Below are positions 1 through 10,508 of a stretch of 10,508 bases of DNA, piece by piece (position 1 is the stretch's first letter; every line of letters starts with the position of its first letter). This stretch comes from Bacteroidales bacterium. GTDB lineage: Bacteria; Bacteroidota; Bacteroidia; Bacteroidales; UBA12077. Where the stretch lies: contig JANQHR010000104.1 of the NCBI GenBank assembly GCA_028282585.1, positions 1-10,508 on the forward strand, given 5' to 3'. The notes under the pieces are model-generated. The model ran no database searches and was not told the origin of the DNA. It worked only from the letters and a program-made list of their open reading frames with translations. A program made the position numbers and the translations under genes.

Positions 1-439
1 CTCTGTATTACCTGATTATATGATGCCTTCCTATTATAGCATAATAGAATCGATACCATTAACATCTAATGGTAAGGTTAACCGTAAAGCGCTGCCAGAA
101 CCGGAGGTGGTAAATAACCTCGTAAAGAAAGGCTATGTATCTCCTCAAACTGACCTGGAAAAAAAGATTTCTAATATTTGGAAAGAAATTTTACAAACAG
201 AGAAAGTAGGTATCTATGACAATTTTTTTGAAATAGGAGGTGATTCAATAAAAAGTATTCAATTACAAAAAGAATTAGAAAAACATTTTAATATAAATAT
301 CTCAATTCAGACAATATTTAATAATCCACAAATACATCATTTGGTTAACTTTTTTGAACAAAAGGATATAGAAGAAGATCAAATTAATGATAGATCTGAA
401 GGAGTAGCTTTCTTGAGTAATTTGATGAGTAATGAATAG
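1..439 (+). CDS. NRPS, 3' end (partial at window edge): C-terminal adenylation subdomain + peptidyl carrier protein + short C-terminal tail
   Basis: The frame is open from base 2 (SVLPDYMMPS...), so the ATG at 20 in the ORF track is internal. Motifs: LPDYMMP, the A10 catalytic-Lys motif LTSNGKVNRKAL, and the PCP motif DNFFEIGGDSI (Ser codon 245-247). Stop TAG at 437-439. No TE or E domain follows. Confidence 0.95.
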   Translation, partial: SVLPDYMMPSYYSIIESIPLTSNGKVNRKALPEPEVVNNLVKKGYVSPQTDLEKKISNIWKEILQTEKVGIYDNFFEIGGDSIKSIQLQKELEKHFNINISIQTIFNNPQIHHLVNFFEQKDIEEDQINDRSEGVAFLSNLMSNE

Positions 440-530
440 AAAAAATAATAAAGAAATATGCAAATATAAATGGGTAAGAAATAGCTAGTCGGTTTCCAGA
501 AGAAAAAAGATCGGAGAGTTTTGGTTAATT
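359..530 (+). repeat. Diverged direct repeat, copy 1, of the NRPS-tail/PKS-start junction (partner 2263-2448)
   Basis: Shares ATATAGAAGAA, TGATAGATCTGAAGG, GAGTAATTT and AAGAAATATGCAAATATAAATGGGT-AGAAATAGCT with 2263-2448, followed by weaker similarity through the RFPE...FW codons. Ends are approximate. Confidence 0.92.
448..528 (+). pseudogene. Dead remnant of the PKS 5' end (KS N-terminus)
   Basis: Reads ATA-KKYANING-TAA-EIA-SRFPEEK versus MKKYANINGLEIAVIGMAGRFPEAK at 2348. Start ATG>ATA (448-450), Leu TTA>TAA (475-477), 15-nt deletion of VIGMA, and a later 1-nt frameshift. Confidence 0.88.
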
Positions 531-558
531 TTTTTCTGTGATTTGCTCAAACTGTTAA

Positions 559-586
559 TGCAAAAATTATTACTTTTTGCAAAAAG
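559..586. other. Overlapping inverted repeats (hairpin or operator-like)
   Basis: TGCAAAAA-ttattac-TTTTTGCA (559-581) overlaps the perfect 14-bp palindrome CTTTTTGCAAAAAG (573-586). Function unknown. Confidence 0.35.
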
Positions 587-637
587 CTTTGTTTATATTG
601 CTGATCTTTTCAGATTACCTGTCAAACTATGGAGAGG

Positions 638-655
638 TTGAGGATTGTTTCTCAA
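638..655. promoter_or_regulatory. Palindromic operator-like site 1 upstream of lspA
   Basis: TTGAG-gattgttt-CTCAA. Its first 9 bases (TTGAGGATT) recur in the palindrome at 725-743. Confidence 0.35.
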
Positions 656-668
656 GCTACACTTTTAA

Positions 669-697
669 TTGACACATAAAAGAAGTAACAATAAAAT
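669..697 (+). promoter_or_regulatory. Canonical sigma70-like promoter candidate upstream of lspA
   Basis: TTGACA (669-674), 17-bp spacer, TAAAAT (692-697). The AT-rich background raises the chance of a random match. Confidence 0.45.
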
Positions 698-719
698 ATT
701 ATGAAAAACAGTTGACAGA

Positions 720-748
720 AATTATTGAGGATTAAATCTTCAATAATT
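720..748. promoter_or_regulatory. Long inverted repeat (operator site 2 or terminator/attenuator hairpin)
   Basis: AATTATTGAGGATT-A-AATCTTCAATAATT has 14-bp arms with one mismatch (a G.U pair in RNA) and is followed by the T-rich run ATTCTTTTATTT. Confidence 0.5.
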
Positions 749-772
749 ATTCTTTTATTTAAGGCTTTTTTA

Positions 773-780
773 TAGCTTTA
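773..780 (+). promoter_or_regulatory. Possible Bacteroidota -7 promoter element for lspA
   Basis: TAGCTTTA differs from the TAnnTTTG consensus at the last base and lies ~40 nt before the lspA ATG. No clear TTTG -33 element. Confidence 0.3.
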
Positions 781-821
781 CGCGCAATTGTGTTAATATG
801 AAAATTTAACAGAAATTGAAT

Positions 822-1439
822 ATGTCCATGGGAAAAAAAACAATACTAATTATATCGCTCATTCTTATTGCTGATCAGTCACTTAAAATCTGGGTAAAAA
901 CCAGTATGTATCTTGGTGAATCGATACCTGTGATAGGTAATTGGTTTATCATACGTTTTGTTGAAAATGATGGAATGGCCTACGGGATAGATATTCCTGG
1001 CAAATTCGGAAAAATGGCACTCAGTCTTTTTCGGATTATTGCCGTGGGAGCTATTGGCTATTACCTGCATATACTCATTAAGAAAAAAGCTCGAAATGGT
1101 TTGATTATTTGTTTGTCCTTTATATTTGCCGGTGCCATGGGTAATATTTTAGACAGCATGTTCTATGGCTTGATATTTAATGAAAGTTCCTTGACTCAAA
1201 CTGCCGAATTTTTACCGGCAAATGGAGGATATAATTCCTTTCTTCATGGGGACGTAGTCGATATGTTTTATTTTCCAATTTTGGAATACACCTATCCTAA
1301 ATGGTTTCCATTATGGGGAGGCCAAACATCTACTTTCTTTAATGCAATTTTTAATCTGGCCGATTCATTTATTACCATCGGTATAATTTCTATTCTGCTT
1401 TTTAATAGAGAAATTTTAAGGAAAAGTATTGAGGCGTAG
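822..1439 (+). CDS. lspA: Lipoprotein signal peptidase (signal peptidase II, aspartyl peptidase family A8), long Bacteroidota-type form
   Basis: Motifs ADQSLKIWV, ENDGMAYG, GAMGNILDS, HGDVVDM (catalytic Asp 1260-1262) and IFNLADS (catalytic Asp 1362-1364). About four hydrophobic helices. The insertions FYGLIFNES...GGY and YPKWFPLWGG are typical of Bacteroidota LspA. ATG 822 preferred; TTG 816 or ATG 828 are possible. Stop TAG 1437-1439. Confidence 0.96.
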   Translation: MSMGKKTILIISLILIADQSLKIWVKTSMYLGESIPVIGNWFIIRFVENDGMAYGIDIPGKFGKMALSLFRIIAVGAIGYYLHILIKKKARNGLIICLSFIFAGAMGNILDSMFYGLIFNESSLTQTAEFLPANGGYNSFLHGDVVDMFYFPILEYTYPKWFPLWGGQTSTFFNAIFNLADSFITIGIISILLFNREILRKSIEA

Positions 1440-1723
1440 GAAATAAGTATATCCCATTCTACCATAACTTGAGATATTTGAGTTGTTTGTACTTTGCTCA
1501 TTTTATATCTATAAACCATTTTCCGAGGTCATCCTTAGTGATCCAATTTTCATATGTAATGATTGTTTTTTGTTTGCTTTTTATTGTTTCATATTTGTTA
1601 TTTATGAAATGAATATGAGGAATTTGACCATGATATTTTAGAATGGAGACCAATTTAAATACGGTGTCAATTTTATCCAAGATGTCATTACCCTAATCTC
1701 GCCCAAATTCTCTAAACTGGATT

Positions 1724-2248
1724 GTAATTACTATAGTAGGGAAGGTAATTTACCTGGTTAATCACATTTGTTACGAGACTTAAACTAGCTGAATGAGATT
1801 TACCATCACAAATGGAGCCAGGCTATCAGAATACTTTATCATATTTCTTTGAACCTAGAAAAACAAATGAGTGTCTCAGTTTATCATAACTATAATCCTG
1901 GAAGGTATCAAATTGGAAAGCAACTTGATTATTTGATAAACTATAATTTGCACATGAAAAAGTAGAACTAATAAAATTTCAAAATCGATTGAAAAAGTAT
2001 CGTAATTTTATTTTTACTTCTCTAGAGCCATTTGAATTTCCTCCAGATTATAATGCCTCTGAAAGAGCTATCCAAAATGTTAAGGTAAAATAAAAAGTGT
2101 TTGATCAATCCAGAGCAGCCAATGGTGCATTTCGATTTGCTATGTATGGATCAATGACAGATATAATAATCAAAAATGAACAGAAGGATTTAAGTCCTTT
2201 TCAAAATATAGCTAATTTATAAACTGATCTGTAATCCTGATTAATAAT
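1724..2248 (+). mobile_element. Degenerate, internally deleted IS66-family element (TnpC transposase C-terminal pseudogene ~1762-2234)
   Basis: Manual translation gives SHLLRDLN*LNEIYHHKWS... then a frameshift at ~1953, then ELIKFQNRLKKYRNFIFT...PPDYNASERAIQNVKVK*KVF...GAFRFA...IKNEQ. This matches the IS66 TnpC hallmarks AHLLR and PPDNNASERAIRxxKVKQKxSG. In-frame stops at 1786, 2091 and 2220. Possible decayed ends GTAATTACT (1724) and CCTGATTAATAAT (2236-2248). Confidence 0.85.
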
Positions 2249-2262
2249 TTAAAAAATAACCC

Positions 2263-2448
2263 CAAAGAATATAGAAGAATAACAGAATGATGATAGATCT
2301 GAAGGGGGAGTTTTTCGGAGTAATTTAATGAATAGGAGAAAAAAACAATGAAGAAATATGCAAATATAAATGGGTTAGAAATAGCTGTAATAGGTATGGC
2401 TGGTCGTTTCCCTGAAGCAAAAAATATTGAGGAATTTTGGGATAATTT
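2263..2448 (+). repeat. Diverged direct repeat, copy 2, of the NRPS-tail/PKS-start junction (partner 359-530)
   Basis: See copy 1. It begins ~15 bp after the putative IS66 right end and runs into the intact PKS start. Confidence 0.92.
2265..2351 (+). pseudogene. Orphan remnant of the NRPS 3' end
   Basis: Reads KNIEE*QNDDRSEGGVFRSNLMNRRKKQ* versus KDIEEDQINDRSEGVAFLSNLMSNE* in the upstream NRPS. Internal TAA at 2280-2282. Its TGA (2349-2351) overlaps the PKS ATG (ATGA). Confidence 0.85.
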
Positions 2449-5400
2449 AAGGCAAGGAAAAGAATCAATTTCAAGATTTACTAACGAAGAACTGATCGAA
2501 AGTGGTTTCAATAAAGAAATATTAGATAATCCCAAATATGTAAAAGCTAAAGGGTATATAAAAGATATCGAATATTTTGACAATGAATTATTTGGGTATT
2601 CGCCTGTAGAAAGTCAATTAATGGATCCTCAATTTAGATTGTTACAAGAATGTGTGTGGGAGGCTTTAGAAAATGCAGGATATGCAAACAATACTTACAA
2701 TGGTAATGTAGGTATTTATGCTGGAGCAAATTTCAATTTTCAATGGCAGGAAATGCTTAGATCAGTCAAAACGTTTGATTTTTTAAATACTTCATTTTAT
2801 AATTGCAGAGAATATTTAACTACACAATTATCTTATAAACTTAATCTAAAAGGCCCAAGTGTTCCTATTATTACCGCTTGTTCAACATCGTTGGTTGCAG
2901 TTCATATTGCATGCCAGGGATTATATATAAGGGATTGTAATATTGCACTTGCAGGCGGGGTATCAATATCTCTTCCAAAAAAATCAGGATACCTTTACCA
3001 GGATGGAATGATTTATTCTAAAGATGGGCATTGCCGTGCATTTGATGCAGAAGCCAGTGGAACTGTTTTTGGTGATGGAGCTGGAGTGGTTGTTTTAAAA
3101 AGACTTAAAGATGCGTTAAAAGATGGTGATTCAATTTATGCTGTCATAAAAGGTTCTGCAATTAATAATGATGGAAATCGAAAAATGGTCTTCTCAGCCC
3201 CTAGTGTTCTTGGTCAGAAAAAAGTAATTAGTGATGCTTTTGCAATTGCAAATATTAATTTTGAGGATATTGGTTATATTGAAACACATGGAACAGGTAC
3301 TAAAATTGGAGATCCAATTGAAATAGAGGCTTTAACAAAAGCGTTTAATACCCCAAAGAAGAATCTTTGTAAAATAGGATCAGTAAAAACAAATGTGGGT
3401 CACTTAGGTATTGCTTCAGGAATTACTGGTTTTATAAAAACAGTTTTAACATTAAAAAATGGACAAATACCACCAAGTCTGAATTATAAAAAATCTAATG
3501 AAGCAATTAATTTTAAAAAAAGTCCATTTAATGTAAATACTACTCTTTTTCACTGGATAGATAATGATAATTCTAGAAAAGCAGGAGTAAGTTCTTTTGG
3601 AATAGGGGGAACAAATGCCCATGTTGTTCTTGAAGAAGCCCCGGAAACAAGAAAATCAGGTTCTAATCGTAGGAATCAGCTATTGCTTTTTTCAGCCAAA
3701 AGTGAACTATCTCTAAATAAATATATTGATAGCTTCATTCAATTTGCAAAAAACAATACAAACTTAAATATTGCAGATTCGTCATATACTTTAAGTGTTG
3801 GGAGAGAGACCTTTGAATATAAAAAGCACCTAGTATATAATGAGAATGTTGACTTTATTAATAAATTGAATGAACTAAAAGAAGAAAGCATACATAATCA
3901 AATTGTTAAAGAAAGAAAACAAGTTGTATTTATGTTTCCTGGACAGGGAAATCAATATATTAATATGGCAAAGGGGCTTTATGATAATGAACCAATTTTT
4001 AAAGCCTATATCGATAAATGCAATACTCTACTTAAGATTAATACGAATAAGGATATTTTAGAAATTGTATTTGCTGCTGACAATAATTTATCAATCAATC
4101 AAACAAACAATGCTCAAATTGCCCTTTTTATTATTGAATATTCCCTGGCAAGTACATTACTGCAACTTGGAATACAACCTGATGCTATGATTGGCCATAG
4201 TATTGGCGAATATGTAGCAGCATGTTTATCAGGAGTTTTTACACTAGAAGATGCCATTTCATTGGTAAATATTAGAGGAGAAGTGATGTTGTCGGCTCCT
4301 TCGGGTTCAATGTTATCCATAAGAATTTCTGAAAAAAAATTACTGGAAATAATTCCAAATGAAATTGAGATTTCAGTGGTTAATACTCCTGAAGATTTTG
4401 TTGTTTCAGGAACAAAGGACGAAATTCAAAAGTTTAAAGAAGTATTGGATAGTAAAAAAATTCAAAACCATTTATTGCAAACTTCCCATGCATTTCATTC
4501 AAAATTGATGGATTCTGTTTTAACTGATTTTAAAATGAAAATTAGTGATATAAAATTCAATGAACCAAGAATTCCATTTATTTCAAATATTACTGGGAAT
4601 TGGATTACAAGCAATCAGGCAACAGATATTCAATATTGGACTGAACATATCAGAAAGCCAGTACAATTCTCCACAGGATGCTATAAAATCTTTAATATTA
4701 TACCAGATATATTATTAGAGGTAGGGCCTGGAAATAGTTTGCAGTATTTCATTGGTAAACATCCTAATGAAAACAATAAACAAATTGTTATACCATTAAT
4801 TCGTCATCCAAAACAAAATACTGAAGATGATTTTATTTTTATAAAAATAATAGGTGCCTTATGGGAACAAGGAATTGATATAAATTGGGAAAATTATTTT
4901 GCAACTGAAAAAAGAAACAGAATTCCTCTTCCAACTTATGAATTTGATAAAAAACGATTTTGGATTGACTCTCAAAATCAAGAATCATTAACAAATACAT
5001 CCCTTTCAAAGAATAAAAATACTGATGAATGGTTTTATATACCTTCATGGAAAAAGTTTAAACCAATAATTAATACAAAAGCAAGCAAATTTAGTAAATG
5101 GTTAATTTTTAACAATGAAAACGATTTTGGTAACAAACTTACAGAACAACTTGAAGCTCAAAATAAACAGATTGTAAATGTTCTTATTGGTGAACAATTT
5201 AGTAAGAATAAAGATGAATTTGAAATCTCAGCAAGCAATAAAGGAGATTACATAAAACTTTTCAATGATTTCAAAAAGAATGGAAATATACCGGATTGTA
5301 TCGTACATCTCTGGAATTTAGACTATTCTCAATCAGAAGAAAATGTTAATTTAGAGAATCAACTAAATAAAAGTTTCTACAGTTTATTATATCTGGCACA

Positions 5401-7828
5401 AGCCATTCTTGAAAATAATATACAATCTAAAATAAAAATTGCAGTAATATCAAACCAATTGCAGAAGGTTTATCATTCAGATATTGTAATTCCTGAAAAA
5501 GCGACTTTAATTGGTGCTCTGAAAACAATACCCCAAGAAGTGAAGAATATTTCTAGTTGTAGTTTAGATATTTTAGTGCCTTTTGAATTTGAACAGGAAT
5601 TAGTATCTCGATTATTGATAGAAATAGAATATTTAAACGAAGAAAATTATTTTGCTGCTTATCGCGGACTTGATCGTTGGGTTCAAACGTTCGAGCATGT
5701 ATCATTACCCCCAAAGAACAATGTTTTAAATGGCAAACTTAAAACTGATAATGTTTATTTAATTACAGGAGGATTAGGTGGTATAGGGCTTATAATATCT
5801 GATCATTTGGTCAAAACGGTTAAAGCCAAATTAATTATTACTACAAATTCATATTTCCCCGCAAAAGAATCATGGGAGCAGTGGATTTCCACACACGATG
5901 TTCAGGATAGAACAACTCAGCGTATAATTGCATTAAGAAATATGGAAAAGCGAGGAGCTGAAGTTCTTATTCTTAAAGCCGATGTCTCTGATTGTGTACA
6001 AATGAATTATGTTATAACCCAAACAATAGAAAAATATGGAACCATAAATGGTATTATCCATGCAGCAGGAAATCCAGGTATTGGAATGATTCAAAATAAA
6101 ACGAAAGAAACAATTGAAAGAGTTTTAAAACCTAAAATTAAAGGATTGCGAACATTGGAAGCAGTTACTGATGATCTTGATTTGGATTTTATTTTATTGT
6201 TTTCTTCAACAATCAGTATAATTGGAGGTTTTGGTCAAATTGATTATTGTGCAGCAAATGCTTTTATGGATTCTTTCGCTCATAATAGTAGATGGGATAA
6301 TAAAATATTATCAATTAACTGGGATGCATGGGCTGAAGTCGGGATGGCGACAAGAACATACTCCAAACCAGATACATTTATAGAACTCAAAGCTCCTAAG
6401 GAACATAATATAATACATCCTTTGGTTTCAAGCATTCAAAAAACAACCAATGAAGAAGTTGTATATAATCTTACTATATCCCCAAAAGAACAATGGTTTT
6501 TATTGGAACATAAAATTAACGATATTCCAATATTGCCTAATACTGCGTATATATATCTTGCATATGCAACACTATGTAATTATTATAAAGCTGGAGTGCT
6601 TAGAATTAGTGAGTTGAATTGTGTATATCCTTTAATGGTAGGGGATATGCATACAAAAAATGGACAAATCCAAGTAACTAAAGAAAATAACAATTTCAAT
6701 TTTGAAATAAAAAGTATTGTTGGTACCAAAAATAATGGAGAGCCAATATGGCAAATAAATGCAGTAGGAAAAGCGGAAAAATTAGATAAAAAACCTCTTA
6801 AATATAATGTTGATGAGATATGCTCAAAATATCAGCCAGTTGAACTTGACTTTGTTGATAATAAAACAGGAGATAGTGATGATCAAAATTTCAGAACATT
6901 TGGTCAGAGATGGAATTCTATCAAAAGAATTTATAAAGGAGAGGATTTTGTATTAGGTTTAATTGAATTATGTGATGTTAATTGTAAGGATTTTGATAAT
7001 CATCAAGTTAGCTCCGTACTGTTTGATTGTGTATTACTGCTTAGTTCAATATTCTCTAAAGAAAAAGAGGTATTACCAATAATGTTTTACAATATTAATA
7101 TCTTCAAAAAGATTCCAGCTTCCCTGTGGGGGCTGTTAAAGTTGAAAACGTCAGATATTCAGGATGATAAGATAATAGATTTTGAATTAAATCTTATTGA
7201 TAAAGAAGGTAATTGTATTCTAATGGTTGAGTCTTTTATCCTGAAAGAAATTAATACTAATATGAATAATGAGCAACCCAATATCATCAATAATAAGCAA
7301 AAAACGTTGCTCCATGGTCAATCAAATGATAATGGAATCTCAAATATTGAAGGAACCGAAGTATTGGATCGGATATTGGAATATAATATGGGAAATCAAA
7401 TCATTGTATCTACAAGAGCTTTGCCCAATCTTATTGAAGAATATAATTCATTAGATATAACTAAATTATCATATAGTAGTAAAGAGTTAAGTAATACTGT
7501 GAGATTACAAAAAAGACCTCAGCTTTCAACCCAGTATGTGCCTCCAAGTCAGCCAGATGAGTTGATGGTGTTCAAGTTGTGGCAAGAATTACTGGGTATT
7601 GAGAAAATCGGTATAGATGACAATTTCTTTGAGATCGGCGGAAATTCATTAATTGCAACTCAGTTTATATTAAGAATTAATGAAGAATTCAATGTAGAAT
7701 TACCTGTGAAATCAATTTTTGAATATTCAACCATCAATCAATTATCTAAATATATAAATGTTATAAATAAAATAAATCCTGAATCTCATTTAAAATCTAA
7801 TGGTGAGGAGAAAGTATATGAAATCTAG
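2348..7828 (+). CDS. Single-module cis-AT type I polyketide synthase, KS-AT(malonyl)-KR with embedded DH-like domain-ACP, 1826 aa
   Basis: KS triad TACSTS (Cys 2879), HGTGT and KTNVGHL. AT GHSIG (4193) and HAFH (4487, malonyl-CoA fingerprint). KR GGLGGIG (5768), PKIKG, FSS and GQIDYCAAN (Tyr 6245). DH-like HPLV...EHKINDIPILP (His 6509)...LFD (Asp 7025). Carrier motif DNFFEIGGNSL (Ser 7646). Tail EEKVYEI. AGGAG at 2334-2338 upstream. Confidence 0.97.
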   Translation: MKKYANINGLEIAVIGMAGRFPEAKNIEEFWDNLRQGKESISRFTNEELIESGFNKEILDNPKYVKAKGYIKDIEYFDNELFGYSPVESQLMDPQFRLLQECVWEALENAGYANNTYNGNVGIYAGANFNFQWQEMLRSVKTFDFLNTSFYNCREYLTTQLSYKLNLKGPSVPIITACSTSLVAVHIACQGLYIRDCNIALAGGVSISLPKKSGYLYQDGMIYSKDGHCRAFDAEASGTVFGDGAGVVVLKRLKDALKDGDSIYAVIKGSAINNDGNRKMVFSAPSVLGQKKVISDAFAIANINFEDIGYIETHGTGTKIGDPIEIEALTKAFNTPKKNLCKIGSVKTNVGHLGIASGITGFIKTVLTLKNGQIPPSLNYKKSNEAINFKKSPFNVNTTLFHWIDNDNSRKAGVSSFGIGGTNAHVVLEEAPETRKSGSNRRNQLLLFSAKSELSLNKYIDSFIQFAKNNTNLNIADSSYTLSVGRETFEYKKHLVYNENVDFINKLNELKEESIHNQIVKERKQVVFMFPGQGNQYINMAKGLYDNEPIFKAYIDKCNTLLKINTNKDILEIVFAADNNLSINQTNNAQIALFIIEYSLASTLLQLGIQPDAMIGHSIGEYVAACLSGVFTLEDAISLVNIRGEVMLSAPSGSMLSIRISEKKLLEIIPNEIEISVVNTPEDFVVSGTKDEIQKFKEVLDSKKIQNHLLQTSHAFHSKLMDSVLTDFKMKISDIKFNEPRIPFISNITGNWITSNQATDIQYWTEHIRKPVQFSTGCYKIFNIIPDILLEVGPGNSLQYFIGKHPNENNKQIVIPLIRHPKQNTEDDFIFIKIIGALWEQGIDINWENYFATEKRNRIPLPTYEFDKKRFWIDSQNQESLTNTSLSKNKNTDEWFYIPSWKKFKPIINTKASKFSKWLIFNNENDFGNKLTEQLEAQNKQIVNVLIGEQFSKNKDEFEISASNKGDYIKLFNDFKKNGNIPDCIVHLWNLDYSQSEENVNLENQLNKSFYSLLYLAQAILENNIQSKIKIAVISNQLQKVYHSDIVIPEKATLIGALKTIPQEVKNISSCSLDILVPFEFEQELVSRLLIEIEYLNEENYFAAYRGLDRWVQTFEHVSLPPKNNVLNGKLKTDNVYLITGGLGGIGLIISDHLVKTVKAKLIITTNSYFPAKESWEQWISTHDVQDRTTQRIIALRNMEKRGAEVLILKADVSDCVQMNYVITQTIEKYGTINGIIHAAGNPGIGMIQNKTKETIERVLKPKIKGLRTLEAVTDDLDLDFILLFSSTISIIGGFGQIDYCAANAFMDSFAHNSRWDNKILSINWDAWAEVGMATRTYSKPDTFIELKAPKEHNIIHPLVSSIQKTTNEEVVYNLTISPKEQWFLLEHKINDIPILPNTAYIYLAYATLCNYYKAGVLRISELNCVYPLMVGDMHTKNGQIQVTKENNNFNFEIKSIVGTKNNGEPIWQINAVGKAEKLDKKPLKYNVDEICSKYQPVELDFVDNKTGDSDDQNFRTFGQRWNSIKRIYKGEDFVLGLIELCDVNCKDFDNHQVSSVLFDCVLLLSSIFSKEKEVLPIMFYNINIFKKIPASLWGLLKLKTSDIQDDKIIDFELNLIDKEGNCILMVESFILKEINTNMNNEQPNIINNKQKTLLHGQSNDNGISNIEGTEVLDRILEYNMGNQIIVSTRALPNLIEEYNSLDITKLSYSSKELSNTVRLQKRPQLSTQYVPPSQPDELMVFKLWQELLGIEKIGIDDNFFEIGGNSLIATQFILRINEEFNVELPVKSIFEYSTINQLSKYINVINKINPESHLKSNGEEKVYEI

Positions 7829-10508
7829 ATTTGAATTAATTGAATATTTAGCTCAGCTGGTAGAACTTGGTATCGAAATTAAAGTTGATCAGCAAAAAGT
7901 GGTAATAAGTGATAGAAATAATAATATTACAGATAAAATACTTGAAGACTTAAAAAGATATAAAAATGAAATAATTGGTCTTAGCTTCGACAAAAGGAAA
8001 AAAGACATTAGTGAAATAAAATTGGTTGATAAAACTATTGACCTTCCTCTGTCTTGTGCCCAGGAAAGGCTATGGTTTTTAGATCAGTACGAGCATAATG
8101 GTGCTTATAATTTACCTGTAGCTATACGTATAAAGGGTAAACTTGATTTATCAATATTAGAAAAAGTATTTAACGAGATCGTATGTCGACATGAATCATT
8201 ACGTACAAATTTTGTTCAAATAAATGATGTGCCTAGGCAAATCATTCATAAAGAACCAAATTATAAAATTGAAACTGTAGATCTTACCAAGATGTCATTA
8301 TATAAGGCTGAACAAAAATTAAAAGGTCTTATAATTGAAGACTCTCAATTGCTCTTTGATTTAGCTAATGATAGTTTGATTAGATTCAAGATGTACGTAT
8401 TATCAGAAGAATATTTTGTATTATTTATAAATCAGCATCACATTATAACTGATTTATGGTCATATAATATTTTGATAAAAGAAATAGGTGTACTATATGA
8501 ATCATTTACAAAAGGCGAACCTTCACCATTAAGAGATTTGTCCATTCAATATGGTGATTTCTCAGTTTGGCAAAAAGAATATTTAGAAAATAAAGTAACA
8601 AAGAAGCAATTAGATTATTGGAAAAATAAACTTACGGGCACCTCAGTGTTAGTATTGCCAACAGATAGGCAACGTTCGGAAGTTCAGACGTTTAATGGGA
8701 GTAGGAAATCTTTTAAGATAAATAAAGATGTAACAAATAAATTAAATGAATTATGTATTAAATACGATGTAACTTTCTTTATGATGTTGCTATCGTTGTT
8801 TAAAGTATTATTGAATAAATACTCAGGCCAAGATGATATTTGTGTTGGTAGTCCTATAGCCAACAGAACAAGGCGTGAATTAGAAGATTTAATTGGTTTT
8901 TTTGTTAATACACTAGTTCTCAGAAGCAAAATTGATATAGAGGGCACTTTTATTGATTTACTAAATAATGTTAAAGTAAATACACTTGAGGCTTATAACA
9001 ATCAGGATATTCCTTTTGAAAAAATATTAAGTGCGGTTAATTCTGAACGGGACTTGTCATTTTCGCCACTATTCCAGGTTATGATGGTTTTGCAAAACAT
9101 TTCTCATAATAATCAAATGATATCATCAGATATAAAATTGGAAAACATGGCATTTGAACATGTAGTCTCTAAATATGATTTAACTTTTGAGTTTACAGAG
9201 TCATCAGATGGTCTTATTTGCGTTATAGAATATAATACAGATTTGTTCAATCAAAGTACAATAGATAGGATGGTAGGGCATTTCAATGTTCTAGTGGAAT
9301 CAATTATATCTAATCCTACTGCTACTATTTCTGGATTAGAAGTCTTAACACCTGCGGAGAAACATAAATTATTGGTAGAATGGAACGATACTGATGCCGA
9401 TTACCCCAAGGATAAATGTATCCATCAGTTGTTTGAGCAGCAGGTAGAAAAAACACCCGATAGCATAGCTGTAGTTTTTGAGGGCCGGCAATTAACATAC
9501 AGGGAATTAAATGACAAATCTAACCAGTTAGGACATTATTTACAAACTAGAGGGGTTAAGCCGGATTCTTTGGTAGGGATTTGTGTAGACCGATCACTTG
9601 ATATGATAATTGGCATGCTCGGGATATTAAAGGCCGGTGGGGCATATGTGCCAATAGATCCATCTTATCCAAATGACAGAATATCATTTATGCTTGATAA
9701 TAGCGAATGCTCTATACTTCTGACCCAAGAATTATTCAAGTCAACATTTCTTAATGAGAAAAATATAGAGGTTGTTTACCTTGATGAAGAGAGTGTTGAT
9801 TCGGAAATAGAAAAAGAATCTAAGAGTACTGTCATTTCAAATGTTCGATCGAATAATCTGGCCTATGTAATTTACACTTCGGGTTCAACAGGCCAGCCCA
9901 AAGGGACACTAATAGAGCATAAGAATGTTGTACGGTTATTATTCAACGATAAATTCCAATTTGATTTTTCAGAAAAGGATGTTTGGACCTTATTTCATTC
10001 TTATTGTTTTGATTTTTCTGTATGGGAAATGTATGGAGCATTATTGTTTGGTGGCAAGTTAGTCATAGTCGCCAAAGACACAGCAGTAGATACTGAACAA
10101 TTTTGTCAGTTATTAGAAAACCATAAAGTAACAGTACTCAACCAAACGCCTTCAGCATTTTATACTTTATCTGAAGAAGCAGGAGGAAAAAATGCTGCTC
10201 TTTCGATACGCTATGTAATTTTTGGGGGTGAAGCTTTGGCTCCTTTCAGGTTAAGGTTTTGGTATGATAATTACCCAGCTTGCAAATTGATAAACATGTA
10301 TGGAATAACAGAGACCACCGTGCATGTAACCTATAAAGAAATAACTGAATTAGAAATCAGGAGTAATATTTGCAATATTGGTAAGCCAATCCCTACATTA
10401 TCCACCTACATATTAGATGAAAATAAAAATCTTCTGCCCATAGGAGTCTCAGGCGAGCTTTGTGTTTCAGGAGATGGACTTGCCCGGGGATATCTAAATA
10501 GCCCTGAG
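7818..10508 (+). CDS. NRPS, 5' part (partial at window edge): N-terminal docking domain - C (LCL-like) - A (threonine-specific code)
   Basis: ATG at 7818 follows GAGGAG (7805-7810) and overlaps the PKS end by 11 nt. I found no in-frame stop. C-domain motifs LSCAQERLWFL, RHESLRT, HHIITDLWS (8436), IGFFVNTLVLR and NQDIPFE. A-domain motifs YTSGSTGQPKG (9873), FDFSVWE, LNQTP, IFGGE, NMYGITETTVH and GELCVSGDGLARGY. The first nine Stachelhaus residues, DFWNIGMVH, are the Thr code. Confidence 0.96.
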   Translation, partial: MKSRFELIEYLAQLVELGIEIKVDQQKVVISDRNNNITDKILEDLKRYKNEIIGLSFDKRKKDISEIKLVDKTIDLPLSCAQERLWFLDQYEHNGAYNLPVAIRIKGKLDLSILEKVFNEIVCRHESLRTNFVQINDVPRQIIHKEPNYKIETVDLTKMSLYKAEQKLKGLIIEDSQLLFDLANDSLIRFKMYVLSEEYFVLFINQHHIITDLWSYNILIKEIGVLYESFTKGEPSPLRDLSIQYGDFSVWQKEYLENKVTKKQLDYWKNKLTGTSVLVLPTDRQRSEVQTFNGSRKSFKINKDVTNKLNELCIKYDVTFFMMLLSLFKVLLNKYSGQDDICVGSPIANRTRRELEDLIGFFVNTLVLRSKIDIEGTFIDLLNNVKVNTLEAYNNQDIPFEKILSAVNSERDLSFSPLFQVMMVLQNISHNNQMISSDIKLENMAFEHVVSKYDLTFEFTESSDGLICVIEYNTDLFNQSTIDRMVGHFNVLVESIISNPTATISGLEVLTPAEKHKLLVEWNDTDADYPKDKCIHQLFEQQVEKTPDSIAVVFEGRQLTYRELNDKSNQLGHYLQTRGVKPDSLVGICVDRSLDMIIGMLGILKAGGAYVPIDPSYPNDRISFMLDNSECSILLTQELFKSTFLNEKNIEVVYLDEESVDSEIEKESKSTVISNVRSNNLAYVIYTSGSTGQPKGTLIEHKNVVRLLFNDKFQFDFSEKDVWTLFHSYCFDFSVWEMYGALLFGGKLVIVAKDTAVDTEQFCQLLENHKVTVLNQTPSAFYTLSEEAGGKNAALSIRYVIFGGEALAPFRLRFWYDNYPACKLINMYGITETTVHVTYKEITELEIRSNICNIGKPIPTLSTYILDENKNLLPIGVSGELCVSGDGLARGYLNSPE

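Follow-up and report, generated by a model that had tools for sequence, protein, structure and literature searches.

Why does an intact gene for signal peptidase II (LspA) lie inside a natural-product assembly line, and does it protect its host from what that line makes? The question is raised by a stretch of 10,508 bp (the window), which is the complete contig C97 (JANQHR010000104.1) of a Bacteroidales metagenome bin (G000, GCA_028282585.1; 4.89 Mb, 173 contigs, 31.9% GC). Every long reading frame in the window is on the + strand, and lspA sits between genes for a nonribosomal peptide synthetase (NRPS) and a polyketide synthase (PKS). A preliminary description of this DNA had taken the gene for a second copy of the target, recruited by a cluster that makes an LspA-targeting antibiotic. 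We find that the gene is an intact lspA, that the same bin carries another, ileS-linked copy, that the cluster copy lies in a secondary insert between two repeats, that extra copies of this kind are rare, and that this one is not a recent duplicate. A duplicated, cluster-associated lspA is already a known kind of feature; what is new is this member, in a cluster without known relatives.

We examined the predicted protein in order to establish its identity. The reading frame encodes 207 aa from a TTG codon or 205 aa from the ATG at 822 (MSMGKK...), the likely start, at which the database copy and relatives also begin (MS..KK). The extra LspA matches Pfam PF01252 (Peptidase_A8, MEROPS A8; E=7e-32, 111 bits, cut-off 25) and the NCBIfam equivalog NF011369, 'lipoprotein signal peptidase' (264.6 bits, cut-off 200). 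It is similar to the solved LspA chains 6RYO (S. aureus), 9EMZ and 5DIR, and it contains four Kyte-Doolittle hydrophobic segments (residues 9-28, 69-88, 94-115 and 176-197) where four transmembrane helices are expected. The catalytic residues D149 (VVDM) and D183 (FNLAD) are both present and are invariant in 233/233 Bacteroidota-type relatives; D183 aligns with the FNIAD motif of S. aureus LspA 6RYO, and the equivalence of V147 and D149 to V116 and D118 of LspMrs, as numbered in PMC6952399, was assigned by motif, not by alignment. PMC6952399 lists 14 highly conserved LspA residues for LspMrs, of which the extra LspA has 13 (D20, K24, N51, G53, G106, N110, D113, V147, D149, F179, N180, A182 and D183). 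The fourteenth, the Arg after GNxxD, is Ser here and likewise in 229/233 Bacteroidota-type relatives, and is thus a lineage trait. The sole unique change is Ala177, which replaces a Pro that is invariant in the 233 relatives and also found in the S. aureus and 9EMZ chains; it lies six residues ahead of the catalytic D183. R176N was considered as a mark of extra copies and ruled out, since ileS-linked genes also vary at this position (Ser, Glu, Gln). On the strength of these features we propose that the extra lspA encodes a functional LspA. The preliminary description of an intact lspA with both catalytic aspartates, on the same strand as the two megasynthase genes that flank it, is thereby borne out by the PF01252 and NF011369 matches, by D149 and D183, and by the NRPS and PKS flanks.

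The host bin contains exactly two Peptidase_A8 matches, the extra lspA on C97 and a copy on C161 in the order ileS, traR/dksA, lspA, usp; the two proteins are 52% identical. The preliminary description had accepted that its proposal would fall if the window held the only lspA of the genome, and with an ileS-linked copy on C161 that objection fails. Second copies are rare among relatives. In the genus, 34/36 other genomes have an lspA match, one each, and 0/36 have two, and a weak second match occurs in 1/19 genomes from other genera of the family. In a sample of the order, at least two Pfam matches are found in 20/400 other genomes, of which 15 were examined (G139, G147, G200, G274 and G423 were left out). 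A second copy was not found with the window LspA as query in 6 of these 15; those that were found are mostly distant, short-type LspA (29-38% identical), and G186 is the only examined order genome with a second Bacteroidota-type lspA. No NRPS or PKS gene is present near any of the seven extra copies whose surroundings were fetched, three of them on contigs shorter than 8 kb. Across 80 metagenome loci with the same LspA type, TraR lies beside lspA in 60 and IleS in 49, in agreement with the earlier remark that these genes are the usual neighbours of housekeeping lspA in Bacteroidota. PKS genes occur in none of the 80 loci, and the single 'NRPS' match is a lone AMP-binding enzyme. These neighbourhoods indicate that a cluster-embedded lspA of this type is unusual. 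Copy counts taken from bins can mislead: the G171 bin (6% contamination) contains two distinct ileS-traR-lspA loci (L050 and L051), which most likely belong to two organisms.

The phylogeny of the extra copy sets it apart from the host's own lspA. Its best match among 5.8e9 proteins is 64% identical, and the lone lspA genes of 37 relatives share 49-61% identity with it. In a tree of 78 rows, the extra LspA has a terminal branch of 0.93 (median 0.15), has no supported sister, and falls outside a clade (support 99) of seven genus copies that includes the host's own. A tree that forces it to be the sister of the host's own lspA is rejected by the approximately unbiased test (p-AU 0.0045), showing that it is not a recent duplicate that arose within this genome. 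Its nearest relatives of known context (L054, L060 and L075) are ileS-linked housekeeping lspA genes. The gene may have come by transfer, or it may be an old, fast-evolving paralogue.

Inspection of the flanks suggests how the gene reached its position (Table 1). The lspA gene is bracketed by two direct repeats of ~170 bp (361-528 and 2264-2440), which align with 132 matches, 33 mismatches and 3 gap events (80% identity by pairwise alignment). The left repeat consists of the live NRPS end (361-439) and a dead PKS 5' end (447-528) with ATG changed to ATA, an in-frame TAA, and deletions of 15 nt and 1 nt, and the right repeat consists of a dead NRPS 3' end (2264-2340) and the live PKS start (from 2348). 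Since each repeat has one dead half, the ancestral arrangement was an NRPS stop followed within ~10 nt by a PKS start, and from this abutting junction it follows that the ~1.7 kb between the repeats was inserted later. Within this DNA, downstream of lspA, we detected a putative C-terminal remnant of an IS66-family transposase. The match at 1956-2129 covers PF03050 positions 225-282 of 284 with one TAA inside and, at 17.1 bits (E=0.008), lies below the cut-off of 23.1; stop-to-stop frames extend the remnant to 2222, and the fragment search gave E=0.061. This is the sole IS66 match in the whole host genome, a hint that the DNA is foreign. We propose, from the anatomy of the junction, that lspA probably entered within a later insert carrying a mobile element that has since decayed. 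The decay that the preliminary description had reported on both sides of lspA can thus be assigned to the dead PKS and NRPS ends and the IS66 remnant. Its view of a second, cluster-recruited target copy stands in part: the copy is second, rare and not a recent duplicate, and entry by an IS66-type insertion allows a non-adaptive route for its recruitment.

Table 1. Positions of the features described in the text; coordinates refer to the window unless a contig is named.
Feature	Position	Strand	Basis or remark
NRPS gene 3' end: adenylation (A) domain end, peptidyl carrier protein (PCP; GGDS serine), short C-terminal tail; cut by contig start	2..439	+	PF00550, E=6.8e-13
Left copy of duplicated NRPS-stop/PKS-start junction	361..528		Direct repeat
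AT-rich palindrome, 14+14 nt, 93% complementary, then T-rich run	720..748		Inverted repeat, ~70 nt upstream of lspA
Extra lspA (signal peptidase II)	816..1439	+	Profile matches, motifs, hydrophobic segments
Decayed IS66-family transposase C-terminal remnant	1956..2222	+	PF03050 weak match; downstream of lspA, same strand
Right copy of duplicated NRPS-stop/PKS-start junction	2264..2440		Direct repeat
PKS gene, 1826 aa: ketosynthase (KS), acyltransferase (AT), ketoreductase (KR), dehydratase (DH)-like, acyl carrier protein (ACP); no stop codon within the frame	2348..7828	+	PF00109, PF02801, PF00698, PF08659, PF21089, PF00550
NRPS gene start: condensation (C) and A domains, cut by contig end inside A domain	7800..10508	+	PF00668, E=1.4e-116; PF00501, E=3.5e-97
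Host housekeeping lspA	C161:33822-34442 (= L003 8811-9452)	-	ileS-linked

We searched the insert for further traces of a mobile element and for signals of expression. No terminal inverted repeats bounding the insert were found, no short target-site duplication was found where the ~170-bp repeats lie instead, and the IS66 end motif is not present in the insert. Neither a plasmid collection nor the rest of the host genome (blastn and tblastx) contains a match to the right flank (1440-2347), and stop-to-stop fragments of the flanks have no Pfam match besides the weak IS66 one. The palindrome at 720-748, between the dead PKS start and lspA, may be a predicted terminator or operator and could stop transcription arriving from the NRPS gene. 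A terminator scan that needs three G-C pairs called none, the palindrome included, and promoter-like sites show no excess (10 found, 12.5 expected in shuffled sequences).

A comparable layout was observed in G186, where the extra lspA (L048 9909-10571, contig C2) has a split IS66 transposase (PF03050, E=3.4e-18; span 8731-10571) downstream of it on its own strand. The two extra LspA proteins are 46-48% identical, and the transposases are 36% identical over 39 aa (E=0.017). A mobile lspA-IS66 unit shared by the two genomes is unsupported beyond the layout, both similarities being weak. It may be that lspA is a recurrent IS66-associated cargo.

The assembly line around the insert appears to be live. 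The PKS frame and both NRPS frames are open with intact active-site motifs (TACS, HGTGT, GHL, GHSIGE, HAFH and GGNS in the PKS), and the PKS and the second NRPS gene share 29 nt at the PKS stop. HAFH is present in the AT, the KR is without an LDD motif, and the DH-like domain retains His and Asp, which we take to mean a malonyl-specific AT, an A-type KR and a possibly active DH. The A domain after the PKS has the specificity residues D-F-W-N-I-G-M-V-H, presumably a threonine code. A PF21394 'beta-ketoacyl synthase-like N-terminal' region comes before the KR and the DH-like domain after it (window 5100-6400, PKS residues ~918-1456), an order that we believe is typical of PfaA-type synthases and not of textbook modular PKS. 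The best PKS matches in the genus and family are 37-49% identical (40-49% across 55 other family genomes), and none of the pattern matches in large contig collections was confirmed as a PKS relative (0 of 36 in genomes, 0 of 76 in metagenomes). The bin has other NRPS material. An ~80-kb NRPS region with ~13 A-domain matches (C124:42000-121020, - strand) runs off its contig end and has one PKS, likewise KS-AT-KR-DH-ACP, that is 38% identical to the window PKS; C148, C126, C25 and C31 carry further NRPS pieces of like composition. C148 and C97 end at the same A-domain position, suggesting a repeat that broke the assembly.

We also examined how far the contig and its assignment can be trusted. 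Ranked among 394 fragments of its own size, C97 is at the 82nd percentile of tetranucleotide distance from the bin mean, and its GC content of 30.9% is less than one standard deviation from that of bin fragments (31.8 +/- 1.7%). The cluster is truncated at both ends of C97, and the end k-mers (21-127 nt) match no other contig, so that the cluster could not be extended or C97 joined to any NRPS contig of the bin. The window sequence is present in a single run (X1), labelled as a coral metagenome and possibly the source sample; no RNA run is listed as containing it. A Logan contig of 9228 nt, from a separate assembly of this run, equals window positions 70-9297 with zero differences; this rules out a chimera made by a single assembler, although the agreement is within one run, not between independent samples. 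In run X1, summed contig depth rises from ~18 to 105-125 across window 9127-9828, the core of the A domain, with variant positions at 9350, 9431 and 9544; this rise reflects near-identical A-domain segments of other modules or organisms piling up.

The housekeeping LspA of the host is itself unusual. It is the only one of 23 genus copies with a longer, different loop between GNILDS and VVDM: ~35 residues (~120-154) just before the catalytic VVDM are replaced, and the rest of the protein is of the genus type. It departs from the >=95% consensus at four positions, all within that loop. This loop is of a 'long-loop' LspA subtype known from a few intact database proteins (P0126-P0132), with 53-71% identity across the 49-residue stretch that was searched. 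The frame is open and keeps the catalytic motifs, and a frameshift artefact was ruled out, as the other frames contain no consensus coding. The loop looks like a recombination patch that would make the protein a mosaic, and it may or may not be tied to an inhibitor. Among full-length matches in the family, the two host LspA proteins score lowest against the Pfam profile (114.1 and 110.4 bits, compared with 118-130).

What, then, could maintain the extra lspA in this position? We infer a link between the gene and the product of the cluster, in which a live NRPS-PKS assembly line would have taken up lspA and selection would have kept it there, the hybrid peptide-polyketide product would inhibit signal peptidase II, and the extra LspA would shield the producer. 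The most likely mechanism would be a higher LspA dosage, with lspA presumably expressed together with the cluster, to which a lower affinity for the inhibitor may contribute through P177A, six residues before D183. In support of self-resistance, lspA sits between core biosynthetic genes on their strand with neither broken, and its frame is open next to a transposase that is near-erased and dead repeat halves that are ~20% diverged. In simulations, a neutral reading frame of the size and composition of lspA stays open in 19/5000 runs (0.4%) when 20% of positions are randomly substituted and in 4.8% when 10% are, figures that bear on lspA on the premise that the repeats acquired their differences in situ and that lspA and the insertion sequence arrived together. 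By the three standard criteria of target-directed mining (ARTS), the gene is duplicated and located in a cluster in full, and its phylogeny is incongruent in part. Since lspA is present in both known clusters for natural LspA inhibitors, we give even chances to the reading that the extra lspA is a self-resistance gene, kept in a cluster whose product inhibits LspA.

Several observations weigh against self-resistance, beginning with the premise of the decay argument just given. A secondary IS66-type insertion is a non-adaptive route by which lspA can enter a cluster, and G186, which has lspA followed by IS66 in a non-biosynthetic neighbourhood (polyphosphate kinase, Ppx and a KilA-N protein, with no NRPS or PKS within 10 kb), shows that a chance landing is possible. 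A tree that joins the extra copy to the genus clade as a whole could not be rejected (p-AU 0.22). None of the collections searched yielded a related cluster, the host genome is a metagenome bin with 3.89% contamination, and composition is the sole basis for assigning C97 to it. At the level of residues, R176N and F56Y are unusual and are found in ileS-linked copies too, and the conserved catalytic and binding residues are unaltered except for P177A. This last point loses its force in light of two reports: GlobF, encoded by the lspA (globF) that Streptomyces sp. CA-278952 carries in its globomycin cluster, has every one of the 14 conserved residues according to PMC9943842, and a modest over-dosage of LspA suffices for resistance to a globomycin analogue in E. 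coli according to PMC7482066. Unaltered conserved residues are thus no argument against resistance.

The domain order also hints at what the product might look like. Transfer from the NRPS PCP to KS-AT(malonyl)-KR would yield a gamma-amino-beta-hydroxy (statine-like) unit adjoining Thr. LspA is an aspartyl protease reported to be inhibited by pepstatin (PMC9360617), and globomycin and myxovirescin are both described as positioning a hydroxyl between the two catalytic aspartates (PMC6952399). Counting against such a unit, the His and Asp retained in the DH-like domain mean that the beta-hydroxyl could be eliminated. We raise as a tentative, somewhat doubtful possibility that the product is a third chemical class of natural LspA inhibitor, made by an uncultured coral-associated Bacteroidota, with a statine-like hydroxyl placed between the aspartates and with both host LspA proteins adapted to it, one by P177A and the other by the 35-residue loop.

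The anatomy of the insert also lends itself to a different account, in which lspA is cargo of an IS66-type element, neutral or protective against inhibitors made by others, that landed in the junction by chance, and the product has nothing to do with LspA. The remnant lies downstream of lspA on its strand and is the only one in the genome, the extra copy of G186 repeats the layout outside any cluster, the insert is clearly secondary to an older abutting NRPS-PKS junction, and PMC7482066 describes LspA dosage as guarding against exogenous inhibitors. Chance would also have to bring together, on one 10.5-kb contig and with the core genes unbroken, an extra lspA, itself rare, and a cluster without a counterpart elsewhere, and it sits poorly with an lspA that is intact beside a transposase that is almost gone. 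The flanking duplication of ~170 bp is not of the short target-site type, terminal inverted repeats were not found, and the two IS66-linked lspA products are only 46-48% identical with weak similarity between their transposases. On balance we hold a chance passenger, the strongest of the competing accounts and one to be taken seriously, to be rather unlikely. The remodelled loop, seen in one of 23 genus copies and holding all four consensus deviations, together with the two lowest Pfam scores in the family, could mean that the extra copy is kept because it compensates for, or has eased selection on, an altered housekeeping LspA, independently of the cluster. We consider this improbable: the long loop is a natural subtype of other, intact LspA proteins, the housekeeping gene is open with its catalytic motifs, and the position inside an assembly line is left unexplained. 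Compensation of this kind is compatible with self-resistance and does not exclude it.

That C97 was binned in error and comes from another Bacteroidota organism of the same sample is quite improbable in our view. A contaminated metagenome bin of 173 contigs and a sequence seen in one run leave room for such an error, and the two ileS-linked copies of G171 show that this mixing happens; the tetranucleotide distance and GC of C97 nevertheless fit the bin, which has five other NRPS/PKS contigs of like composition, and in any host the copy would still be outside an ileS context and inside an insertion. We know of no precedent for a biosynthetic role of a cluster lspA, in which LspA would mature an export lipoprotein or process a precursor of the product. 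Such a role, very improbable to our mind, draws on the co-location alone and on the possible regulatory role of a cluster lspA mentioned in PMC9943842; no lipoprotein or transporter gene is present on C97.

The locus matters for several reasons. LspA is presented in PMC9943842 as an essential and clinically unexploited Gram-negative target with two known classes of natural inhibitor. Because the clusters of both classes carry lspA, an extra lspA embedded in a cluster is among the more specific signals for genome mining, and the present cluster is without a detectable relative in the collections searched and its phylum has yielded few characterised antibiotics. Should product and LspA be linked as proposed, the locus would offer a new scaffold and natural resistance determinants (gene dosage, P177A and the remodelled loop), and if both LspA proteins are adapted, they would be natural examples of escape from such inhibitors. 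If the link is false, the locus still shows that lspA is movable by IS66-type elements, which is relevant to the spread of resistance to LspA inhibitors.

Comparison with known systems places the extra lspA within an established pattern. Duplicated lspA genes associated with biosynthetic gene clusters are an established mining signal, with 64 bacterial entries in ARTS-DB 2.0 as given in PMC13613211, and the myxovirescin copies serve as a positive control for target-directed mining in PMC7319560. The premise of the preliminary description, that the known inhibitors are NRPS/PKS products and that the myxovirescin cluster carries extra lspA genes, is correct and even stronger than stated, as the globomycin cluster has globF (PMC9943842). 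In Myxococcus xanthus DK1622, lspA3 and lspA4 lie within the myxovirescin (antibiotic TA) cluster (PMC9943842). Like the gene described here, they are extra to housekeeping copies and located within a hybrid PKS/NRPS cluster, and the myxovirescin product inhibits LspA. The present locus differs in its phylum, in having one lspA rather than two, in the location of that gene between megasynthase genes in an insert associated with an insertion sequence, and in being known from sequence alone. The resemblance to globF is similar: it encodes a second LspA in a PKS-NRPS cluster (globomycin is a lipodepsipeptide), with a housekeeping copy elsewhere and conserved residues unchanged. In contrast to GlobF, the LspA described here is of the Bacteroidota type, with two loop insertions and Ser for the conserved Arg. 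The PKS module here is internal (peptide, ketide, Thr), whereas in globomycin it provides the lipid starter. Globomycin contains Ser and allo-Thr (PMC9943842). In the window, an A domain that we take from its specificity residues to be of the Thr type follows the PKS. Relative to housekeeping Bacteroidota LspA (the NF011369 / PRK14788 type, in the order ileS-traR-lspA), the extra LspA belongs to the same subfamily (49-64% identical) and is distinguished by its lack of ileS linkage, its long branch and its unique Ala177. The extra lspA of G186 is likewise of the Bacteroidota type, not linked to ileS and followed by an IS66 fragment on the same strand; unlike the copy in the window, with which it shares only 46-48% identity, it lies apart from NRPS and PKS genes.

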